Below are positions 1 through 15,387 of a stretch of DNA of 64,000 bases, one piece after another (the stretch's first letter is position 1; each line of letters starts with the position of its first letter). The DNA lies in IMG/VR virus record IMGVR_UViG_3300045988_165032, one strand, 5' to 3'. Below the pieces are notes generated by a model, which had not been told where the DNA came from, ran no database searches, and saw nothing but the letters and a program-made list of their open reading frames with translations. The DNA comes from a virus. Both the position numbers and the translations under genes were made by a program.

Positions 1-958
1 GAAATTGCGGGGATAGAATATAATCAATAAAGACTAAGTTATAATAGCGATATTATAATGGCAAGTAGTAATGTGCTTGGTATAGTAAAACGTTTATTGT
101 AGTTCCAATCCGCAGCCAAGTGTCTCACGGAGACAAAGGTTCAACGACTAGGTTTTATAACCGTAGATTTTATAATCGAAATACCCGTAGGTATTTAGGA
201 GGAATAATTATGGAAAAACAAGAAATTTGGAAAAAAATTTTAATTAACGGTCAAGAAACTTTTTATAGTGTATCTAATTATGGTAATGTGCGTAATGATT
301 CAACTAAAACCTTATTAGGAGGATCAGTTACTAATAATGGTTATCGTATAGTGCATTTACGTTATCGAATAGATAAGAATTGCTCAGTTCATAGATTGGT
401 TATGAAAGCATTTAAACCTTGTGAAGAGATGGATGAATTGCAAGTTAATCATATAGATGGAAATAAATTAAATAATAATATAGATAATTTAGAGTGGTCA
501 ACAGCATTAGAGAATATGCGTCATAGTTACACTAGTAATTTACAACAACATGAAATGAAAGAATGTCATCAATATGATTTAAGTGGCAATTACATTCAGT
601 CTTTTGTAAATGGTTATGAAGCTGCACAAAAGCTTAATTTGGATTACACTAGTATATGGAGATGTATAACAGAACAACAGCAGCATTATAAACAATATCA
701 GTTTAAATCGTATAAAAAAGATAAGATCAACTGTTGGAGTAATTCAAACAAGAAAATAGTTTATGTATATGATAATAATGGTAATTTTATTGACTCTTAT
801 AATTCACAGAAAGAGTGTGCTAAAGCTTTTGGAGTTGCACCTTCATCTATTTGCCGATATTTAAAAGGTATTCGTAAATTAAAAGGTTTTGTTTTTTCTG
901 ATATTCCTTTATAAATATTTGAAGATATAGTCTGATGTATTATATTATATAATATATG
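1..958 (+). mobile_element. Group I self-splicing intron, 5' end cut by the window, carrying an HNH homing endonuclease in the P8 loop
   Basis: Conserved core elements are present. P: AATTGCGGGGA at 2-14. Q: AATCCGCAGCCAAG at 107-120. R: GGTTCAACGACTAGG at 138-152. S: GAAGATATAGTCTGA at 921-935. R and S give the P7 pairing ACUA/UAGU. A terminal G lies at 958, immediately before an exon that starts KTTIATKF. Confidence 0.6.
210..914 (+). CDS. HNH homing endonuclease (HNH_3 plus NUMOD/IENR1 DNA-binding repeats), intron-encoded
   Basis: ATG at 210 is preceded by an AGGAGG RBS at 197-202. HNH motif HRLVMKAF...NHIDGNKLNNNIDNLEW. C-terminal NUMOD-like helix-turn-helix. The ORF-track start at 120 is a GTG that overlaps the intron R element. 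Confidence 0.8.
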   Translation: MEKQEIWKKILINGQETFYSVSNYGNVRNDSTKTLLGGSVTNNGYRIVHLRYRIDKNCSVHRLVMKAFKPCEEMDELQVNHIDGNKLNNNIDNLEWSTALENMRHSYTSNLQQHEMKECHQYDLSGNYIQSFVNGYEAAQKLNLDYTSIWRCITEQQQHYKQYQFKSYKKDKINCWSNSNKKIVYVYDNNGNFIDSYNSQKECAKAFGVAPSSICRYLKGIRKLKGFVFSDIPL

Positions 959-1897
959 AAAACGACAATCGCAACCAAATTTCCACGCCACTTGTTGCTG
1001 GCTTTTGAGAAAGGATACAACGCGATTCCTGGAGCAATGGCTCAGCCAATTAATACTTGGGCGGAATTTAGAAAAGTGCTGAGACAATTAAAAGATGAAA
1101 AAGTAAAAGAACAGTTTGAAACGATTATTCTGGATACAGCAGATATCGCATATGACTTGTGTGAAAAGTATATTTGTGCCAATGCAAAAAGACCAGATGG
1201 CGGCTTTGGGGTGGATTCTGTTAGTGATATTCCTTTTGGGAAAGGGTATACTCTAGTCGCCAAAGAATATGATGAATGTTTACGTTCTATTATTCAAATG
1301 GATTACGGTTTAGTTTTAATTAGTCACTCAGTAGATAAAACTTTTAAAGATGAGCAAGGTCAAGAGTATAATCAGATCGTTCCTACCTTAGGAAATAAAC
1401 CTAGAGCGATTGTATCTCGAATGTGCGATATTATAGGCTACTCTCGTAGTATTCAAGATAAAGAAGGTAAAACTTCAACTAAATTATTTATGCGTGGAAC
1501 GCCAAGATATATTGCAGGCTCTCGTTTTAAATATACTCCAGATTACATTGATTTTAATTATCAAAGCTTAGTTGATGCTATTGGCATGGCTATTGATAAA
1601 CAAATGGAAGAAGATGGAAGTGAGTATTTTACAGACGAAAGATCAAACTTATATAAAGACACAAGAGCGGAATTAGATTTTGATGAATTATTGAATAGTT
1701 TCAATACTATTGTAAATGATTTAATCATGCAAAAATCTAATGAGGAATTTAAAGAATATTGGCAGCCTAGAATCGTTCAAATTACAGATAGATATTTAGG
1801 AAAAGGTATGAAAGTTAGTCAATGTTCAAGAGATCAAGTTGAGGCTTTAGATTTAATTGTTACTGACTTGAAAGAATTAGTAAAAAGTGTGGATTAG
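959..1897 (+). CDS. AAA_24/Sak4-like ATPase, 3' exon only (5' exon lies upstream of the window)
   Basis: The exon begins KTTIATKFP, the second half of a Walker A GxxGxGKT(T) motif. Downstream AAA_24-like blocks: TIILDTADIAYDL, GLVLISHSVDK, VPTLGNKPRAIVSRMCDIIGY. Confidence 0.55.
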   Translation, partial: KTTIATKFPRHLLLAFEKGYNAIPGAMAQPINTWAEFRKVLRQLKDEKVKEQFETIILDTADIAYDLCEKYICANAKRPDGGFGVDSVSDIPFGKGYTLVAKEYDECLRSIIQMDYGLVLISHSVDKTFKDEQGQEYNQIVPTLGNKPRAIVSRMCDIIGYSRSIQDKEGKTSTKLFMRGTPRYIAGSRFKYTPDYIDFNYQSLVDAIGMAIDKQMEEDGSEYFTDERSNLYKDTRAELDFDELLNSFNTIVNDLIMQKSNEEFKEYWQPRIVQITDRYLGKGMKVSQCSRDQVEALDLIVTDLKELVKSVD

Positions 1898-1910
1898 TCC
1901 ACACTTTTTT
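1887..1910 (+). terminator. Rho-independent terminator (GTGTGGA-TTAG-TCCACAC followed by a T run)
   Basis: 7-bp stem plus T6 directly after the stop codon of the ATPase exon. Confidence 0.5.
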
Positions 1911-1937
1911 GATATTTATTAAAAAATATGTTATAAT
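1909..1937 (+). promoter_or_regulatory. Sigma-A-type promoter: TTGATA, 17-nt spacer, TGTTATAAT (extended -10)
   Basis: -35 at 1909-1914, spacer 17 nt, -10 TATAAT at 1932-1937 with an upstream TG. The same architecture recurs at 8750-8778 and 20053-20081. Confidence 0.45.
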
Positions 1938-1963
1938 ATAATAAAAGAATTAAGGAGTTTTAA

Positions 1964-2479
1964 ATGGCTCATTTAGTAACGTGCGTTTATTGTAAAAAAC
2001 GTTTTGATAGAGACAAAATAGACACAACTCAAATTTCCGCAAGGAGATATGCACATAAAGAATGTGCGGAAAAGAATCAAAAAGAAAAAAGCCAGGAAGA
2101 GCAAGACTTAGAAAAATTAGAGCAATATATTATGAAACTATTTGATGAACCTTATATTAATGCTAGAATTAAAAAACAAATTAAAGATTATAAAGCTATG
2201 TATAATTATACTTATAGTGGAATGTTAAAATCTTTGATTTGGTTTTATGAAATTAAAGGAAATTCAATAGAAAAAGCGAATGGCGGAATTGGTATTATCC
2301 CTTTTATATACAAGGATGCTTTACAATATTATTATAGCTTGTATTTAGCGAAATTATCAAATGAAAATAAGAATATTGAAGAATATAAACCTAAAATAAA
2401 ATATATAGAAATCACCCCCCCTTCTGCGATTCGAAAAATGAAAAGGCTATTTAATTTAGACAGTAAGGAGGAAGAATGA
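1964..2479 (+). CDS. Hypothetical zinc-finger protein (CxxC...HxxC), possible helicase-associated factor
   Basis: ORF with an AAGGAG RBS. N-terminal CVYCKK...HKEC. Sits immediately upstream of the dnaB-like gene. Confidence 0.45.
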   Translation: MAHLVTCVYCKKRFDRDKIDTTQISARRYAHKECAEKNQKEKSQEEQDLEKLEQYIMKLFDEPYINARIKKQIKDYKAMYNYTYSGMLKSLIWFYEIKGNSIEKANGGIGIIPFIYKDALQYYYSLYLAKLSNENKNIEEYKPKIKYIEITPPSAIRKMKRLFNLDSKEEE

Positions 2480-2480
2480 A

Positions 2481-3511
2481 GTGGGAAAATATGTAGACAT
2501 TCCATCTATTATTCAAGTTATTGGAGGGATTTATTTAAACCCTAATTTACTAGATGAAGATGGAAAATATTTTTTTAATGAAGAGGATTTTACAGAAGAA
2601 TTTCATAAAATTCTTTTTGGGTCTATATATAATTTACATGAATTAGGTGCTAAAGAAATTTCTATCAATGCGATAGAAGATTATTTAGAGCAAAGACCAA
2701 AAAGTTATGCAGTTTATAAAGCTAATAAGGGACAAGAATATCTTCAAAAATTAAGTAAATCAGTACAATTAGCTGCTTTTGATTTTTATTATAGCAGGAT
2801 GAAAAAGATGACTTTGCTAAGAATGTATCAAAATATAGGAATGGATTTATCATGGTTATATGATATAGACAATATCATGGATGTTAAGAAGAAGCAGGCT
2901 CAAGAGGATTGGTTAGATAATTCATCTATTGAAGATATTGCAGAGATCATTGACAAAAAAATTACTGATATAAGATTAAAGTATGTAGATGATGCTTCTA
3001 ATGGTGCGGAGCTGGCAGGTAATGGAGCATTAGAGCTACTCGAACGCTTAAAAGAGACACCTGAAGCAGGATATCCTCTATTCGGACCCTTGATAAATAC
3101 TGTAACTAGAGGGGCTAGATTAAAGAAATTTTATTTGCGATCAGCCGCAACAGGAGTAGGAAAAACACGAGCGATGATTGCGGATGCATGTTCTATTGCG
3201 TGCGATGAAATTTATGATTCTAAAGAAGGAAAATGGATTCCAAATGGAACTAAAGAACCAACAATCTTTATTTCAACAGAGCAAGAAAAAGATGAAATTC
3301 AAACTATGATAATTGCTTTTTTATCTGACGTAGATGAAGAGCATATTATTTCTGGAGAGTATTATGCTGGAGAATGGGAGCGTGTTATTTACGCAGCAAA
3401 TCTTTTAAAACAATGCCCTCTATATATAGAACAATTACCAGATTTTTCGCTAAAGGATATCGAGAATACTATTAAGCGTGGAGTTAGAGAGTATAATATT
3501 AGGTATGTGTT
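2481..3511 (+). CDS. dnaB: Replicative DnaB-like helicase, 5' exon (3' boundary approximate)
   Basis: GTG start with an AGGAGG RBS. DnaB N-terminal domain. Walker A SAATGVGKT. The exon ends near ...NIRYVF just before the DYxxx (Walker B/H2) motif. The listed ORF to 3578 reads through into the intron. Confidence 0.6.
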
Positions 3512-4526
3512 CAACCCTTTTGTGGGTTTAAAGGACTGTGTAAAACTTTTCCAGCTTACCACTGGGGTTATCGTTTAAGATAGCTAACGGGGAACCCTAA
3601 GTAGAAATATATGGGAATCCCGTGGGAAACTTTGGACAGAAATAATCAAATTTATTTTGACTACTTTCATACACAAATAGAAAATTGTGTGGAAGGAGTT
3701 AAAAATGGCAATAGTTTACTGTTATACTAATCAAATCAATAATAAAAAATATATAGGACAAACAATTAACCCAGAGCAAAGAAAAAATCAGCATCGAAGT
3801 TCTGCTTTCAATCCTTCTGATAAAGATTATGAATCATTAATTCATAGAGCTTTTAGAAAATATGGTTATGAAAATTTTACTTATGAAGTATTAGCTGAAA
3901 TTTATGACAATGATTTTGACTTACTTAATAAGCTAGAACAATATTATATTTTAAAATTTAACTCAAAAGTTCCTAATGGCTATAATGTTTTAGAAGGTGG
4001 AAAGAATTGTGCGAGACCGCATAAGGAAGAGACTAAAGAAAAAATGAGATGGTCTCATGCAGCTCTTACGAAAGAAGAAGTTATCTCTTTGCGAATTGCT
4101 TATAAAGAACAAAAAAGTCCAACTAAAATATTTAAAGAAAAATACGAAGGAAGAATAGAATGGCAATCTTTTTTAAATATCTGGACTGGAAAAAGGTATG
4201 CTACTGTAATGCCAGAAGTTTTTAAAACAAATGATGGTACGGGAAGAAAAACCAAACTTACTGTTGAAATTGTAAAAGCAATTAGGGAAGAAAGAGAAAA
4301 AACAGGGAAAAGCTATGATAAAATAGCAAAACAATATGGAATCTCAAAAGCAACTGTTGCAGATTTGATTAAAAGAAGAACTTGGAAAAATGTCTAAAGA
4401 ACCTGTATCGACTATCCTCGGATCGGAGGAGTAGGACTACTATTGGTACGTAGTTCGAAATGGTTTCCTATGACTTTTGTCGTAGTAAGAGATAGTCAAC
4501 GCCTCTTGAAAGAGAGGACTTACGTG
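3509..4526 (+). mobile_element. Group I intron (td-like IA2) carrying a GIY-YIG homing endonuclease in the P6 loop; boundaries within about 5 nt
   Basis: 5' core CTAACGGGGAACCCTAAGTAGA...GGGAATCCCGTGGGAAAC resembles the T4 td intron P3-P4-P5 region. 3' core TGTATCGACTATCC...GTAAGAGATAGTCAACGCCTCTTGAAAGAGAGGAC gives R/S and the P9 hairpin. It separates two halves of one DnaB reading frame. Confidence 0.55.
3705..4397 (+). CDS. GIY-YIG homing endonuclease (I-TevI-like) with C-terminal NUMOD/IENR1 domain
   Basis: IVYCYTN...KYIGQT...R...E...N motifs. GGAAGGAG RBS before the ATG at 3705. Embedded in the intron. Confidence 0.8.
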   Translation: MAIVYCYTNQINNKKYIGQTINPEQRKNQHRSSAFNPSDKDYESLIHRAFRKYGYENFTYEVLAEIYDNDFDLLNKLEQYYILKFNSKVPNGYNVLEGGKNCARPHKEETKEKMRWSHAALTKEEVISLRIAYKEQKSPTKIFKEKYEGRIEWQSFLNIWTGKRYATVMPEVFKTNDGTGRKTKLTVEIVKAIREEREKTGKSYDKIAKQYGISKATVADLIKRRTWKNV

Positions 4527-5046
4527 CTTCGATTACATCCATACAAGTATGAAAATTTTAAGTGAAGTCTCATCTAAGACTGGAGTAAGAGGATTAAGAG
4601 AAGATAATATCCTTTTTATGATTTCAATTCGCTTAAAAGATATGTGTAACCAGTATGGTATTTTTATTATGACAGCAACTCAGTTAAATAGTAGTTATAT
4701 AACAGCTCAACAATATGATCAGAATCTGTTAAGAGGAGCTAAATCTATTGCGGATAAAATTGATTGTGGTATGATTATGCTTGAAGTTGATAATGATGAT
4801 CGTAACGCTTTAGAAAATGTTTTAGCTCAAGGAGGATTTGAGACGCCTCAAATTAAAATATCTATTTATAAAAATCGTAGAGGTAGATATAAAGGAATTT
4901 TATTGTGGTGTAAGGCGAATAGAGGTACTTGTAAAATTATTCCTATGTTTGCAACTAATTACCAGTATGAGTTGATTCCTATTGAAGATTTAAAAATCAC
5001 TGTTAAGCCAAAAGAAGAAAAAAAGACTGATGTTAGTGCTTTTTAA
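4527..5046 (+). CDS. dnaB: DnaB-like helicase, 3' exon (5' boundary approximate)
   Basis: The in-frame sequence upstream of the listed ATG (from about 4527) encodes FDYIHTSMKIL, the DYLQL-type motif. ISIRLKDMCNQYGIFIMTATQLN matches DnaB ISRSLKxLAKELNVPVIALSQLNR. Confidence 0.6.
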
Positions 5047-5075
5047 TTTAAAAAGAAAGAAAGGAATAAAGAGTC

Positions 5076-6212
5076 TTGTATAAGTATGATAAAGACGAAT
5101 TAAAATTAAATCTTTCAATAGAGCAAGTTTTTGATCTGGTCGCGGAATTGGGTGGAGAGCCACGAATGGAAAGTGGTTTTTTTATTTCTAAAACAATATG
5201 TCATAATCATGCTGGAGAAGGCTCTTATAAATTATATTATTATGACAATACTAAATTATTTAGATGCTATACTGATTGTGGGACTAGCTTTGATATATAT
5301 GAACTTGTAAGAAAGATAAAAAATAATAGTAAGGACTTAAAAAGTTATTATAACAAAGAAGGAAAAGTTTGTTATAGAGAATGGGAACTTTTTGATGCTG
5401 TTGAATTTGTTGCAATATATTATGGATATTCACCAAAAACATTTGATTTTCAAAAGACTCAAGAGAAATTAAAAGATTGGGAAGTTCTTAATAATTATGA
5501 GCAAATAAACAAAGATGAACAAGAGCAAAGAGTAGAATTAAGAATTTTTGATAATAAAATTTTACAGTATTTACCTCGTCCGCGAATAATAACTTGGGAA
5601 CAAGAGGGAATAAAAAAGGAGGTAATGGATCATAGGGGCATCGCCTATGATCCTAAAAACCAAGGTATAGTAATTCCGCATTATGATATAAATAATCAAT
5701 TAGTTGGAATAAGAGAAAGAACTTTAATTAAAGAAGAAGAAAATTTTGGAAAATATCGACCAGCTATTCTAAATGGAGTTATGTATAACCACCCTCTAGG
5801 CTTTAACCTATATAATCTTAATAATAGTAAAGATAATATAAAAATAATTAAAAAAGTTATTGTTTATGAAGGAGAAAAATCTTGTCTTTTATATGCTAGC
5901 TATTTTGGAGAAGAAAATGACATTAGTGTAGCTTGTTGCGGAAGTTCATTAATTACTTATCAAGTTAAATTATTATTATCTTTAGGGGTAAAAGAAATTA
6001 TTGTTGCTTTTGATAAACAGTTTATTACTATTGGTGATGATGAATGGAAGCGTTGGACAAAGAAATTAACAGATATTCATAATAAGTATGGTGCTTATAC
6101 TCAAATATCTTTTATGTTTGATAGATGGGACCTATTGCAATATAAATCAAGCCCAATAGATGAAGGAAAAGATACTTTTATGGAACTATTTAAAAGGAGA
6201 ATTATATTATGA
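5076..6212 (+). CDS. dnaG: DnaG-like DNA primase (CHC2 zinc finger plus TOPRIM)
   Basis: CHNHAGEGSYKLYYYDNTKLFRCYTDCGTSFDIYELV zinc-binding region. VIVYEGEKS TOPRIM acidic motif. Apparent TTG start. Confidence 0.7.
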   Translation: MYKYDKDELKLNLSIEQVFDLVAELGGEPRMESGFFISKTICHNHAGEGSYKLYYYDNTKLFRCYTDCGTSFDIYELVRKIKNNSKDLKSYYNKEGKVCYREWELFDAVEFVAIYYGYSPKTFDFQKTQEKLKDWEVLNNYEQINKDEQEQRVELRIFDNKILQYLPRPRIITWEQEGIKKEVMDHRGIAYDPKNQGIVIPHYDINNQLVGIRERTLIKEEENFGKYRPAILNGVMYNHPLGFNLYNLNNSKDNIKIIKKVIVYEGEKSCLLYASYFGEENDISVACCGSSLITYQVKLLLSLGVKEIIVAFDKQFITIGDDEWKRWTKKLTDIHNKYGAYTQISFMFDRWDLLQYKSSPIDEGKDTFMELFKRRIIL

Positions 6213-8820: not shown

Positions 8821-10005
8821 ATGATTTTAACAAAGAAACAAGAAGAAGGATTACATATTGCAATAGAAAGATATAAGAATAAGGAAAAGTACACTGTCAT
8901 TGGAGGTTACGCGGGAGTAGGCAAGAGTAGTTTAGTAAAATTTATAATTGAAGCTTTAGATATTGATATAAATAAAGTGTGTTATACTGCTTTTACTGGG
9001 AAAGCCGCAGAGGTTTTAAAGAAAAAAGGAAATCATAACGTTTGTACTTTACATAAACTTTTATATGACCATTTTCCAAAGCCAGAAGGCGGTTTCTTTA
9101 GAAAACCAAAAAAAGATATTCCATATTCAGTTGTAGTGGTTGATGAAATTTCCATGGCACCTAAGTCATTGATGGAATTACTAGCATCTCATAAATGTCA
9201 TATTATTTGCTTAGGAGATCCGTTTCAGCTCCCACCAATTAACAAAGATGAAGATAATCATTTATTAGACCATCCGCATATATTCTTAGATGAAATTATG
9301 CGGCAGGCGGAAGATTCTGAAATTATTCAACTGTCTATGAAAATTAGAAAAAGAGAACCAATTTCTTTATTTAATGGAAATAATGTTAAGGTCTTATCAA
9401 AAGAAACTTTAAATACAGGGATGCTTACTTGGGCGGATCAAATTTTGGTAGGAACAAATGCGACTCGTCAAAATATCAATAACCAGATGAGAGCTTTATT
9501 GGGGCGGGGATCACTCCCAGAAGATGGAGATAAAGTTATCTGTTTAAGAAATTATTGGGATGATATTAATGAAAATGGAGATTCATTAGTAAATGGAACT
9601 ATTGGCTACTTAAAGAATCCTTTTGAAACTTTTTATACAGTTCCGCGATTTATAAAAACAGATAAACGTAAATTAGAGATGATTAGCTCAGATTTTATTA
9701 TTGATAAAAATACTTCATTTAATTATGTTCTTGTAGATAAACAACTAATTTTAAATGGAGAAAGATGCTGTGATTGGAAAGTAGCTTATCAATTAGGGAA
9801 ATTAAAAGATAAAATCGGAGATGTAGTTCCTAAAGAATTCGCATACGCGTACGCTATTACGGGACATAAGTCACAAGGAAGTGAATGGGATAAAGTCTTA
9901 GTTATTGAGGAAGCTTTTCCTTTTGACAAGACAGAACATGCACGTTGGCTATATACTACAGTTACACGGGCAAGTGAAAAATTAGTTTTAATAAGGAATG
10001 AGTAA
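8821..10005 (+). CDS. RecD/Dda/Pif1-like superfamily 1 DNA helicase
   Basis: Walker A GGYAGVGKSS. Walker B VVVDEISM. C-terminal ITGHKSQGSEWDKVLVI (UvrD_C_2-like). Confidence 0.7.
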   Translation: MILTKKQEEGLHIAIERYKNKEKYTVIGGYAGVGKSSLVKFIIEALDIDINKVCYTAFTGKAAEVLKKKGNHNVCTLHKLLYDHFPKPEGGFFRKPKKDIPYSVVVVDEISMAPKSLMELLASHKCHIICLGDPFQLPPINKDEDNHLLDHPHIFLDEIMRQAEDSEIIQLSMKIRKREPISLFNGNNVKVLSKETLNTGMLTWADQILVGTNATRQNINNQMRALLGRGSLPEDGDKVICLRNYWDDINENGDSLVNGTIGYLKNPFETFYTVPRFIKTDKRKLEMISSDFIIDKNTSFNYVLVDKQLILNGERCCDWKVAYQLGKLKDKIGDVVPKEFAYAYAITGHKSQGSEWDKVLVIEEAFPFDKTEHARWLYTTVTRASEKLVLIRNE

Positions 10006-10237: not shown

Positions 10238-12759
10238 ATGAGTAATCGTTTTGAAACTCATTCTCATACTGAGTATAGTAATCTTCGTTTATTAGATTGT
10301 ATTAATAGACCAAAAGATTTAATTCAAAGAGCGATTGATTTAGGCTTATCTGGAATTGCTATTACAGACCATGATTGTCTATCTTCTCATATGGAAATAA
10401 ATATATATGCTCAGGAATTAAAAGAGAAAAATCCTAACTTTAAAATTGCATTAGGGAATGAAATTTATTTATGTCCATCAAGAGATAAAGGACAAAAATA
10501 TTTTCATTTTATTTTAATTGCTAAAAATAAAATTGGATATAGAGCATTAAAAGAATTATCTTCAAGAGCTTGGATGAATTCTTTTTTTGATAGAGGCATG
10601 GAAAGAGTAGTTACTTTATATGACGACTTAGCGGAAATTGTAAAAAAATATCCAAATAGTTTAATTGCAACAACAGCATGCTTGGGTGGAGAATTGAGCA
10701 CTCTAACTAAACAATTAATTTTAGCAGAACAAACAAAAGATGCTGAATCCGTGGAAGATGCTCATAACAGAATAGTTAATTTTATTTTATGGAATAAGTC
10801 TTTATTTGGACAAGATTTCTATATTGAGTGTGCTCCAGGACAAAGTAAAGATCAAGTAATGGTAAATAAGAGACTTTTATCTATTGCTAGATGTTTTAAT
10901 ATAAAAATGGTACTTGGCACAGATGCTCATTATTTAAAAAAAGAAGATAGATTTGTTCATAAATCTTACTTAAATTCTAAGGGTGGAGAACGAGAAGTTG
11001 ATGAGTTTTATGAATATAGTTACTTGCAATCAGAAGAAGAAATAATTGAAAATTTAAAGCCTTCTGAGTTAAATTATGAAGAATTATGTAATAATTCTTT
11101 AGAAATTTATTCTAAAATTGAAAATTATAATTTAAAACATAAACAAACAATTCCAAAAGTTAAAGTTAGAGATTACCCTAAAGATAACTCTTTAAAGGAA
11201 TATCCTACTTTACATAAATTATTATTAAGTGATGATATTCAAGACAGATATTGGGTTAATACTTGTTTGCAAAAACTCCAAGAAATAAATAAATATAACA
11301 ATACTTATTTATCTCGATTAGAAGAAGAAGCTGATATTAAAGATACTATTAGTAAAAAACTTGAAACTAATATGTTTAGTTATCCTAATACTTTACAACA
11401 TTATGTTGATTTATTTTGGGATTGCGGAAGTATGGTAGGTGCAGGAAGAGGAAGTTCTTGCTCTGGATTAAATCATTACTTAATGGGAATTACTCAACTA
11501 GATCCGATTGAATGGGAGCTTCCTTTCTGGAGATATTTAAATAAAGAGCGTATAGAGCTTGGAGATATAGATTTAGATTTAAGTCCAAGTAAAAGACCTT
11601 TAATTTTAAAGAAAATAAAGGAAGAACGCGGAAAAAATTTTAAAAAAGATATTGATGTTTTATCTCGAAAAAATTTAGGATGTACGTTGATAGCCACTTT
11701 TGGAACTGAAGGTACTCGATCAACTATTTTAACCGCTTGTCGCGGATATAGAAGTGAAGAGTATCCAGACGGAATTGATGTTGACACTGCTCAATTTTTA
11801 TCTTCTTTAATTCCAAGTGAAAGAGGTTTTTTATGGTCTTTATCAGATGCCATTAATGGTAACCCAGATAAAGATAGAAAGCCTATTAAGATGTTTACTA
11901 ATGAGGTAGAAAAATATCCTGGCTTATTAGATATTATGATTGCTATTGAAGGGTTAGTAAACAAAAGGAGTTCTCATGCTTCTGGAGTAATTCTTTTTGA
12001 TGAAGACCCATATGAATTTGGATGTTTTATGCGGACTCCTAAAGGAGAAATTATTACGCAATGGGATCTTCATATGTGCGAAGCAGCAGGTATGACAAAA
12101 TATGACTTCTTAGTAACTGAAGTCCAGGATAAATTAGCAGAAACAATTAAATTACTACAGGCTAATAATGAAATTGAATCAGATTTATCTTTAAAAGAAG
12201 TGTATGAAAAATATTTTCATCCAAGTGTTTTACCTATCGAAGATAAAAAATGTTGGAAAGCACTGCAAAACAACTCAGTTTTAAATATTTTTCAATTTGA
12301 TAGCGATGTAGGCAGTCAGGCTGCAAAAAAAATTAAGCCAGCCTCAATAATTGAAATGTCAGATGCTAATGGATTAATGAGACTTATGACTAGTGAAAAA
12401 GGTCAAGAAACGCCAATGGAAAAATATGTAAGATATAAAAAAAATATTGATCTTTGGTATCAAGAAATGAGAAGAGAGGGGTTATCTCCTCAAGAGATGA
12501 AAACATTAGAACCTTATTTCTTAAAGTCTTATGGTGTTCCGCCAAGTCAAGAACAATTAATGAGTATGTTAATGGATAAGGATATTTGCGGTTTTAAGTT
12601 ATCTGAAGCCAACACCGCGAGAAAAATTGTTGGTAAAAAACAAATGAGTAAAATTCCAGAATTGAAAAAGAAGGTTATTGAACAAGCTAAAAGAAAAGAA
12701 CTCGGAGACTATGTATGGAAATATGGCATAGGTCCGCAGATGGGATATAGCTTTAGCAT
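10238..12759 (+). CDS. dnaE: DNA polymerase III alpha (DnaE-type), 5' exon
   Basis: N-terminal PHP domain HSHTEYSNLRLLDCI...IAITDHDCL. Polymerase core. Exon ends ...GYSFSI. Last exon nucleotide is U12759. Confidence 0.7.
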
Positions 12760-13985
12760 TGTGTGAATGGTGCTTACACACTTAACCACTTATCAGTGGG
12801 GTAATTAAAACATTTACATATTTGGCAAATATGGTTTTAATTGCTAACGAGGGTTAAATCTCGTGACAAATTTCTTTAATAGAGGTATAGTATTTTTCAG
12901 TTATACATGAGAATAGTAAAACAATGTATAAGGAGAATATTATGTACTATATTTATAAATTTACAAATAAAACAAATGGTAAAATTTATATCGGACAAAC
13001 TAATAATGTTCAAAAAAGAAAAAATGGACATAAAAGTGAGTCTTTTAATGAAAAAGCTTCTGGCTATAATTTGCCATTTCACGCAGCCATAAGAAAATAT
13101 GGTTGGGATAATTTTAATTTTGATATTCTTGAAGAGATTGCTGATGGAGAATCTCAAGAATATATTGACGAAAGAGAAATTTATTTTATTCAATATTATC
13201 ATTCTTTAAAAGATGAAAATGGATATAATATTACTTTAGGCGGACAAGGATATAAAAGAAAACCTTTAACGTATGAAGAAAAATTAAACCGATCTAAACT
13301 CTTTAAAAAAGAAGAAATTATTGATATTCAAAATCGTCTAATGAATGATGAAGAATATGATGATATTGAAAAAATTTATTTTCCTAAGTTAAAAAGAACG
13401 TTTTTAGTTAATATAAATACTGGAACAAATTATTTTAATGAAGAGTTTGATTATCCTTTAAAGAAAAATTCTAAAAGCCGCTTTTCTCAAAAAGAAATTA
13501 GAGAAATAAAAGATAGAATTAAAAGCGGAGAAAAATATAAAACAATTCAAGAAGATTTTGGAATTAAATCAGCTGGATTTTTATCTATGATAAATACAGG
13601 AAAATATTTTTATAGTGATAAGGATAACTACCCTCTTTGTGATAAAGGTGGTAATAAAGCTAAAAATGAAATCTGGATTCAAGGTATTATAAAAGATATT
13701 TTAGAAACAGATTTATCTTTAAAAGATATCGCAAAAAAATGGAATAAAAGCTATGCAACAATTAAAAATATTAACGCAGGACGTTCTCATAAAAAAGAAA
13801 AATATAAATACCCTCTTAGAGATAATAAATAAATCTATTAAAAGAAAAATGTTGTATCGACTATCCCTGGTTAGACGGGGAGTACTGAAACTATTGATAC
13901 GTTTTGGGAAATAGTGTGCAGACAAGAGAAAAGCCAAAATCTCACTACAACGTCTGTAAAAAATAGTCAGTAATTTTAAATTATG
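12760..13985 (+). mobile_element. Group I intron (paralogous to the dnaB intron) carrying a GIY-YIG homing endonuclease
   Basis: P1: exon AGCAU (12755-12759) pairs with GUGCU (12770-12774), with a U.G pair at the splice site. 3' core TGTATCGACTATCCCTGG matches the dnaB intron. Terminal G at 13985. Excision joins GYSFSI to IHALAYSFIGFQT, restoring the DnaE F-N-K-S-H-A-x-A-Y block length. Confidence 0.65.
12942..13832 (+). CDS. GIY-YIG homing endonuclease (I-TevI-like) with NUMOD/IENR1 repeats
   Basis: YYIYKFTNKTNGKIYIGQT...R...E...N. AGGAG RBS. Related to the dnaB-intron endonuclease. Confidence 0.8.
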   Translation: MYYIYKFTNKTNGKIYIGQTNNVQKRKNGHKSESFNEKASGYNLPFHAAIRKYGWDNFNFDILEEIADGESQEYIDEREIYFIQYYHSLKDENGYNITLGGQGYKRKPLTYEEKLNRSKLFKKEEIIDIQNRLMNDEEYDDIEKIYFPKLKRTFLVNINTGTNYFNEEFDYPLKKNSKSRFSQKEIREIKDRIKSGEKYKTIQEDFGIKSAGFLSMINTGKYFYSDKDNYPLCDKGGNKAKNEIWIQGIIKDILETDLSLKDIAKKWNKSYATIKNINAGRSHKKEKYKYPLRDNK

Positions 13986-15387
13986 CATACATGCCCTGGC
14001 TTACTCTTTCATAGGATTTCAAACTATATACATAGCCACAAGATGGAATCCTATCTATTGGAATACCGCGTGTTTAATTGTAAATAGTGGAGCCTTAGAA
14101 GAAGATAATATTGAAAATGAAGAAGAAACAGAAGAAAGTAAAAAGAAAGAAAAATCTACGGATTATAGTAAAATAGCTAAGGCTATTGGAGATATTTTAT
14201 CAAGAGGAATAAAAATTTCTTTAGTTGATATAAATAAATCTGACTATAGCTTTAAGCCAGATGCTGAAAACAACGAAATTCTTTTTGGAATGAAAGCATT
14301 GAGTAATGTAGGTGCACCAATTATTGAGCAGATTTTTTCTGGTAGACCATATAAAAGCATTAAAGACTTTATGATAAGATGTCCTTTAAATAAATCTGCA
14401 ATGATTTCCTTAATAAAGAGCGGAGCTTTTGATAAACTGGAATTAGAATGGGCAAAAGAATTAAATGTTGAACCAAGAGTGCTTGTAATGATATATTATC
14501 TGTCTGTTGTTAGTGAACCAAAAAAGAAATTAACGCTACAAAACTTTAATGGTTTAATTCAAAAAGACTTAATTCCACCTTCTTTAGATAGTATGAAAAG
14601 ATTATTTTTCTTTAATAAGTATCTAAAAACTGAGAAAAAAGTTGGAAAATATTATGTCTTTGATGATGCTTGTGAAAAATTCTACAATCAAAGATACGAT
14701 ATGGAAGACCTTGAAGTGATAAACGGATGCGTTTGTATTTTACAAAACAAATGGGATAAAAAGTATCAAAAAGGCATGGATAGAGCTAGAGATTGGCTTA
14801 AAGAGAATCAACAGACAGTATTAAAAGAATTTAATGAGGCTTTATTTCTTGACTCTTGGAATAAATATGCTAAAGGAAATATTTCCGCGTGGGAAATGGA
14901 AAGCTTATGTTTTTATTATCATCCACATGAATTAATAAATATTGATACTTTAAAGTATGGAATTTCAGATTTTTCTAAATTACCCGAAGAGCCTGTTGTA
15001 GATTATTTTTTCAAAAGAAATGGAAAAGAAATCCCTATTTATAAGACTTATAAAATCATTGGCACTGTAATCAGTAAAAATGATGCTCGTTCTTCAATAT
15101 CATTATTAACAACTTCTGGAGTTGTTAATGTAAAATTTACAAAAGATTACTTTGCTATGTTTGGGAGACAAATTTCTGAAAAGCAAGAAGATGGAACTAA
15201 AAAAGTTATGGAAAAAGGCTGGTTTCAAAGAGGAACAAAAGTAATGTGTACTGGGTTTAGGCGTGGAGATACATTTCAGACTAAATCGTATAAACATACC
15301 CCTACCCATCAGCTCTACAAGATTATTGACGTCAATGGTTCAGATATGAAACTAGAGCATGTTAGATATGGTATGGAAGGAGAATAA
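13986..15387 (+). CDS. dnaE: DNA polymerase III alpha (DnaE-type), 3' exon
   Basis: Upstream in-frame extension HALAYSFIGFQTIYIATRWNPIYW matches the DnaE HAxAYxLxxYQTAYLKAHYP block. HhH region ALSNVGAPIIEQIF. C-terminal OB-like region. Confidence 0.7.

Follow-up and report, generated by a model that had tools for sequence, protein, structure and literature searches.

The window, the whole stretch of 64,000 nucleotides analysed here (IMG/VR record IMGVR_UViG_3300045988_165032), opens with 209 nucleotides in which we found no convincing gene; group I core sequences are present there instead. They are followed by an open reading frame for an I-HmuI-like HNH homing endonuclease, and then by most of a gene for a Sak4-like ATPase of the AAA_24 family (Table 1). 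The upstream part of the locus is supplied by L004 (ENA ERZ27239097), a metagenomic contig of 134.6 kb that matches the window without a single mismatch over 10,914 overlapping nucleotides, and in which window position 1 corresponds to position 9792. The source is an SPbeta-like phage type of about 135 kb seen in metagenomes (samples ERZ27239097 and SRR9333274, for example), and the exact HNH protein of the window is encoded on several metagenomic contigs, L004 among them. Gene callers give three separate ORFs of 32, 234 and 313 aa for this locus. The first of these, MGIDLLNIKPHQVSRDLRGYSVFFYGEPKSG-E-stop on L004, closes 30 bases before the window start. The last is reported as a 313-aa ‘ATP-binding protein’ because an ATG at 956–958, which gene callers use as the start, is in frame with the ATPase sequence. 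This ORF matches AAA_24 only from position 15; it thus lacks its N-terminal part, and with it the first half of the P-loop.

On L004, a 31-codon exon 1 (MGIDLLNIKPHQVSRDLRGYSVFFYGEPKSG; MGIDLL...FFYGEPKSG) ends with the codon GGU, 35 nt before window position 1. The uninterrupted Sak4-like protein of Enterococcus phage VRE9_4, which is 50% identical, reads ...FYGEPKSGKTTTATRFPKSLLLAFEKGY; together with the end of exon 1, this reading places the join between GEPKSG and KTTIATKF. The DNA at the boundaries runs from ...AAAAGTGGT through GAATAG...ATATATG to AAAACGACA..., and the predicted spliced RNA reads ...CCTAAAAGTGGT followed directly by AAAACGACAATC (GGU joined to AAA). The ATG at 956–958 thus constitutes the last three bases of the intron and lies outside the exon. 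In L004, GUGGU at the end of exon 1 pairs with GCCAC 19 nt downstream to form P1, with a U.G at the splice site, and UUUU just 5′ of this guide could form a candidate P10 with the AAAA at the start of exon 2. The 3′ end of the intron is the G at window 958, and a G is terminal in all six same-site copies described below. Only 5 nt separate P1 from P3 in the L004 upstream sequence, and P2 is absent.

These data confirm the reading of an earlier note on this DNA, that an intron lies in a Sak4-like ATPase gene at the start of the window; positions 1–958 are the 3′ part of a group I intron. The window does open inside an intron that splits Walker A, with exon 1, P1 and the P3 5′ strand lying on the identical contig L004. 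Of the upstream features that the note had named for inspection, the in-frame first half of Walker A, P1 and the P3 5′ strand were found, but P2 was not. Likewise, the intron sits inside the P-loop codons as proposed, but the motif had been given as GxxGxGK; Walker A here is GEPKSGKT, that is, GxxxxGK[T].

Table 1. Features of the interrupted ATPase locus in window coordinates; positions of 0 and below lie upstream of the window, on L004.
Feature	Position	Strand	Details and basis
Group I intron, 3′ 958 nt of 993	1..958	+	Start at window −34 (L004 9757), 35 nt upstream of the window
Element P, AAATTGCGGGGAT	2..14	+	J3/4 and P4 5′ strand UGCGGG (6–11); Rfam alignment
P5 domain	26..98	+	P5 26–31/93–98, P5a 32–36/83–87, P5b 38–46/51–59, P5c 65–67/74–76; RNAalifold
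Element Q, AATCCGCAGCCAAG	107..120	+	P4 3′ strand UCCGCA (109–114) and start of P6, GCC (115–117)
P6 hairpin	115..140	+	115–117/138–140 and 121–124/132–135
Element R, GGTTCAACGACTAGG	138..152	+	P6 3′ strand, J6/7 and P7 5′ strand GACUA (146–150)
P7.1 GGUUuuauAACC (151–162) and P7.2 GAUUuuauAAUC (166–177)	151..177	+	RNAalifold
P3 3′ strand CCCGUA	184..189	+	Partner UAUGGG at −5..0, just upstream of the window
P8 5′ strand	190..204	+	Holds Shine-Dalgarno AGGAGG (197–202) of the endonuclease gene
HNH homing endonuclease ORF, 234 aa, I-HmuI-like, in P8 loop	210..914	+	ATG 210, TAA 912–914; Pfam, PDB 1U3E, PHROG 59
P8 3′ strand	905..919	+	Overlaps stop codon TAA 912–914
Element S, GAAGATATAGTCTGA	921..935	+	J8/7 and P7 3′ strand UAGUC (928–932)
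AU-rich P9 hairpin (935–957) and terminal G (omega-G, 958)	935..958	+	
Exon 2, Sak4-like/YorG-like AAA_24 ATPase	959..1897	+	Starts KTTIATKF at the Walker A Lys; stop 1895–1897

The elements P, Q, R and S are all located where the earlier note had put them. P pairs with Q (UGCGGG/UCCGCA) and R with S (GACUA/UAGUC), the latter in 6/6 copies, and the P9 hairpin is missing in three relatives (L024, L031 and L042). The Rfam model RF00028 aligns P3-P4-P5-P6-P7-P3′ to window −7..189 with 27.8 bits (E 7.7e-5), below the gathering score of 50, a threshold that serves as an operational cut-off and is no biological defining feature. The match is local (model positions 47–158) and emerged only when the upstream 35 nt were included and the stretch searched was short; the window alone gave no intron match, either as a whole at the gathering threshold or over 1–6000 at E ≤ 10. 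We attribute the shortfall to the 715-nt ORF-containing P8 loop, beyond which the 3′ half of the core lies, and to the lack of P1–P3 in the window. Extra hairpins at the P7.1/P7.2 position are typical of subgroup IA, and the marks of IA2 are P7.1/P7.2 between P7 and P3′ and a core sequence similar to that of the T4 td, SPO1 and Twort type. With an extended P5, P7.1/P7.2 and no P2, the intron appears IA2-like, an assignment that draws on architecture and general resemblance rather than on a subgroup-specific model.

The endonuclease gene was proposed in the earlier note to lie between R and S in the P8 loop, and the two strands of P8 indeed enclose it. Its product matches NUMOD4 (9.8e-11), HNH_3 (5.3e-13), NUMOD1 (4.1e-14) and I-HmuI_NUMOD-like (2.2e-10) in Pfam, all above the curated cut-offs, as well as the structure of I-HmuI (PDB 1U3E; E 2e-8), whose catalytic-motif region DHKDGNK...NLRW reads NHIDGNK...NLEW here. 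Orthologues occupy the same place in all six same-site introns, with 232–234 aa, 50–68% protein identity and no frame disruptions. Where dS is unsaturated, dN/dS is 0.11–0.16 (0.108 for the close pair L024/L027), and therefore the protein is maintained by purifying selection. A tblastn search of the HNH protein against deposited phages gave nothing above about 37% identity.

The predicted spliced product aligns to AAA_24 (PF13479) over positions 2–195 of 195 with 128 bits (cut-off 27), bearing out a check that the earlier note had suggested; exon 2 alone covers positions 15–195 with 109.9 bits. It also matches PHROG 124, ‘Sak4-like ssDNA annealing protein’ (7.9e-50), and shares 50% identity with proteins annotated as Sak4-like in Enterococcus phages. 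As the name derives from such annotation, ssDNA annealing is to be read as a putative function. By megablast, window 1–2400 found among deposited phages only a 58-nt HNH motif match and no close cultured relative. A scan of bacterial genomes for the phage host returned only MAG bins of inconsistent taxonomy. One 2.4-kb NCBI record is labelled Megamonas funiformis; P0049, an NCBI protein under the same label, is an exon-2 fragment. A further homologue, 70% identical and intron-less, lies in a MAG named ‘Cyanobacteria bacterium UBA6984’ (L045 1709–1750) and carries an in-frame TAG in the Walker A region (FFYG*PKSGKTT), which could be a sequencing error or a sign that this phage has reassigned the stop codon.

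Alleles with and without the intron coexist in this phage group. Searching with the predicted spliced protein retrieved five 343-aa proteins (P0001–P0005) that are 98–99% identical over their full length and read ...FFYGEPKSGKTTIATKF... at the site. The contigs that encode them (L013–L016) have the same neighbours, YorF-like, YorH-like and DnaB-like genes, and no insertion. In a blastn comparison of the window with one of them (L013), homology resumes exactly at window 959, in agreement with the earlier placement of the downstream exon start at KTTIATKF. The intron-less alleles read GGT or, as in L013 and L015, GGC followed by AAA at the junction. The empty site of L014 and L016 is GAGCCTAAGAGTGGTAAAACGACGATCGC; it reads TATGGAGAGCCTAAGAGTGGT-AAAACGACGATCGCAACCAAG, and the same 21 + 21 nt flank the intron in L035 and L041. 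Among the occupied loci examined, about 18, both exon fragments are intact and in register in every one, and exon-2-only forms (313–314 aa) occur on well over 100 contigs. Intron presence is thus polymorphic among near-identical phages, and its boundaries are exact.

Two scans of viral contigs, one for a Q...R pattern and one for a P7-P7.1 pattern, yielded five further diverged copies (L024, L027, L031, L042 and L043), each at the same Gly/Lys site, in Sak4-like genes 50–65% protein-identical to that of the window. These five and the window/L004 copy were aligned with the ORF replaced by a short loop. From this alignment, RNAalifold independently predicts P1, P3, P4, P5/5a/5b/5c, P6, P7.1, P7.2 and P8; P7 was added as a pseudoknot before pairs were counted. 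Across the six copies, standard pairs fill 96.3% of cells compared with 35–46% in controls slid by 1–3 columns, and changes on both sides occur in 30/74 pairs compared with 4–10, a comparison that is inflated because the tested structure was derived from the same six-sequence alignment. None of 500 shuffles reaches any of the observed measures. Compensatory pairs are found in P5 (5/6), P5b (6/9), P5c (3/3), P6 (4/7) and P8 (7/13), the last of which confirms that the endonuclease gene lies in the P8 loop. P7.2 has one such pair, and P3 has one (UA/AU) in addition to a change from U.G to C-G in L043. P4, P7 and P7.1 show no variation across the six copies and therefore contribute no covariation. 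P1 varies together with the exon, as GUGGU/GCCAC, GCGGGU/GCUCGC, AGCGGU/GCCGCU and UAGGU/GCCUA; its U.G is kept in 6/6 copies, and two of its pairs show compensatory changes that follow the exon differences.

This body of evidence bears directly on whether the gene is spliced at all. The three separate ORFs given by gene callers, and the fact that Rfam reports no intron at its gathering threshold, would both fit a locus without splicing, in which a free-standing HNH gene broke the Sak4-like gene into a 32-codon stub and a 313-aa pseudogene or fragment. However, a conserved group I core flanks the ORF and carries the compensatory changes described above, the guide covaries with the end of exon 1 across diverged lineages, and the boundaries match a U...G group I junction exactly; moreover, both exon fragments are intact and in register in all occupied loci examined, and exon-2-only forms recur on well over 100 contigs. 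We consider such a breakage highly improbable. The in-frame ATG at the intron 3′ end, present in the window, L042 and L043, could instead point to a decayed relic that no longer splices efficiently, with exon 2 translated alone from 956–958 into an ATPase lacking the first half of its P-loop. Yet this ATG has no Shine-Dalgarno before it and is not conserved, the intron ending in ACG in L024 and L027 and in TCG in L031, while compensatory changes maintain the core helices and P1, and exon 1 is kept at 31 codons with its Walker A half intact; a relic is likewise highly improbable. Conserved P-loops are a type of site also favoured by inteins, but an intein or other protein-level element, for which only this position speaks, can safely be rejected as already refuted by the reading frames, as the exon-1 frame is closed two codons past the junction (GAA TAG), the HNH ORF has a separate start and ribosome-binding site, and Pfam found no intein domains. 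These alternatives fail on the covariation, the unconserved ATG at 956 and the reading frames. We are highly confident that, in a large SPbeta-like phage, the gene for the Sak4-like (SPbeta YorG-like, AAA_24) ATPase is interrupted between the Walker A Gly and Lys codons (GEPKSG followed by KTT) by a 993-nt group I intron that appears IA2-like and is predicted to be mobile and self-splicing.

Among the closest known systems are insertions in DNA polymerase genes. The RNA core of the window is closest to that of an HNH-containing insertion splitting the DNA polymerase gene of Staphylococcus phages 184DA and BE05, with which window 3–155 aligns at about 73–77% and which likewise has its HNH ORF between R and S; further matches to the core fall in unannotated gaps of Bacillus, Vibrio, PhiPA3 and Clostridioides phages. 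More broadly, the I-HmuI-family insertions in polymerase genes of Gram-positive phages (I-HmuI/II of Bacillus SPO1/SP82, I-KsaIII of Staphylococcus K-like phages, 184DA and BE05) share with the intron described here the P/Q/R/S core, the HNH plus NUMOD architecture, in which the present endonuclease matches the I-HmuI structure 1U3E, and a conserved replication or recombination gene as the site. In contrast to these, the intron sits in a Sak4-like AAA_24 ATPase gene, its guide is specific for the Walker A codons, and its endonuclease shares no more than 37% identity with any found in deposited phage genomes.

SPbeta carries group I introns in bnrdE and bnrdF (ribonucleotide reductase). It has the gene order YorF, YorG, YorH, DnaB-like in common with this phage (by Pfam names), and resembles it in having several HEG-containing insertions per genome. 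Its yorG, however, is uninterrupted and about 31% identical to the ATPase of the window, and the bnrdE/bnrdF introns differ from the present one in both insertion site and endonuclease. A functional parallel is the recA gene of Bacillus thuringiensis phage 0305phi8-36, a recombination ATPase gene which also contains an endonuclease-encoding group I intron; there, the host protein is RecA rather than Sak4/AAA_24, and the enzyme, I-Bth0305I, is described as representing a new homing endonuclease family rather than the HNH family (PMC3239194). The literature searched yielded no account of an intron in a Sak4/AAA_24 gene, and none of the deposited phage genomes carries the intron of the window. 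As a phage group I intron with an I-HmuI-type HNH gene it is typical; its host gene and insertion site are new.

Homing-endonuclease genes are unusually abundant in the replication module of this phage group. In the window, the DnaB-like helicase gene (2481–3578 and 4549–5046) is split by an insertion of about 1016 nt (3512–4527) that contains a GIY-YIG ORF (3705–4397) and an S-like GAGATAGTCA at about 4491–4500; the insertion is absent from L011 and L013, which have intact helicases of 516 and 512 aa, and Rfam found no group I match in it. The DNA polymerase III alpha gene (10238–15387) also appears split, into 842 aa (PHP, pol3_alpha, finger), a GIY-YIG ORF (12924–13832) and 365 aa beginning inside HHH_6, with no Rfam match over 12700–14350; the corresponding proteins of L009 and L013 have 1304–1307 aa. 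Gyrase B-like and topoisomerase IV/GyrA-like genes, which lie upstream of the window, are variably split by GIY-YIG ORFs in relatives (L004 1–1600, L012 426–3844, and the upstream regions of L008 and L013); one further GIY-YIG gene precedes thyX, and another the YorF-like gene in L013. A different P-loop insertion, of about 1.05 kb and with a LAGLIDADG-type ORF, is found in a 60%-identical Sak4-like gene of the MAG ‘Clostridium sp. SUG825’ (L048 about 1860–3010; JALFMW010000007.1). Its likely junction, between GGWKT and GKTT, lies 3 nt upstream of the site used in the window; it has a possible P1 (AGACU/GGUCU) and a terminal G, and Rfam gave no group I match for it.

We propose the following course of events for the intron in the window. 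In the pre-mRNA, the last five bases of exon 1 would pair with the internal guide, setting the U.G at the splice site, and the first bases of exon 2 would be held by the UUUU just 5′ of the guide in P10. Through two transesterifications GGU would become joined to AAA, and the 343-aa ATPase would be restored. Self-splicing is suggested by a ribozyme structure that is conserved and covaries, by the exact U...G junction and by the presence of both exons, intact, in every occupied locus examined. The I-HmuI-type HNH endonuclease would be made from the P8 loop, with its ribosome-binding site within the P8 stem, and would presumably nick or cut the intron-less Sak4 alleles of co-infecting relatives near the conserved site; the intron would be copied in during repair. 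Homing of this kind is consistent with the presence/absence polymorphism, with occupation of the same site in distant hosts and with purifying selection on the ORF; the activity of the endonuclease and its target on intron-less Sak4 alleles are predictions.

The HNH/IA2-like intron occupies the Gly/Lys position in five or more diverged lineages, and the LAGLIDADG-type insertion of L048 appears to lie 3 nt upstream of that position in another lineage. It is conceivable, if rather unlikely, that the Walker A codons of phage Sak4-like ATPases are a recurrent homing hot spot of unrelated elements, and that the HNH enzyme, instead of being a purely selfish passenger, is used as a weapon against intron-less relatives that infect the same cell. 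The intron endonuclease of PhiPA3 is described as such a weapon (PMC11620839).

The P-loop of a Sak4-type ATPase is a new host gene and site for phage group I introns, and no concept is changed by it. For annotation, the ORFs of 32, 234 and 313 aa should become one spliced 343-aa ATPase gene with an intron-encoded endonuclease, and public-database entries for a 313-aa ‘ATP-binding protein’, such as P0049, represent fragments encoded by exon 2. Taken together, the occupied and empty alleles and the six diverged copies form a natural set for the co-evolution of intron, endonuclease and target.
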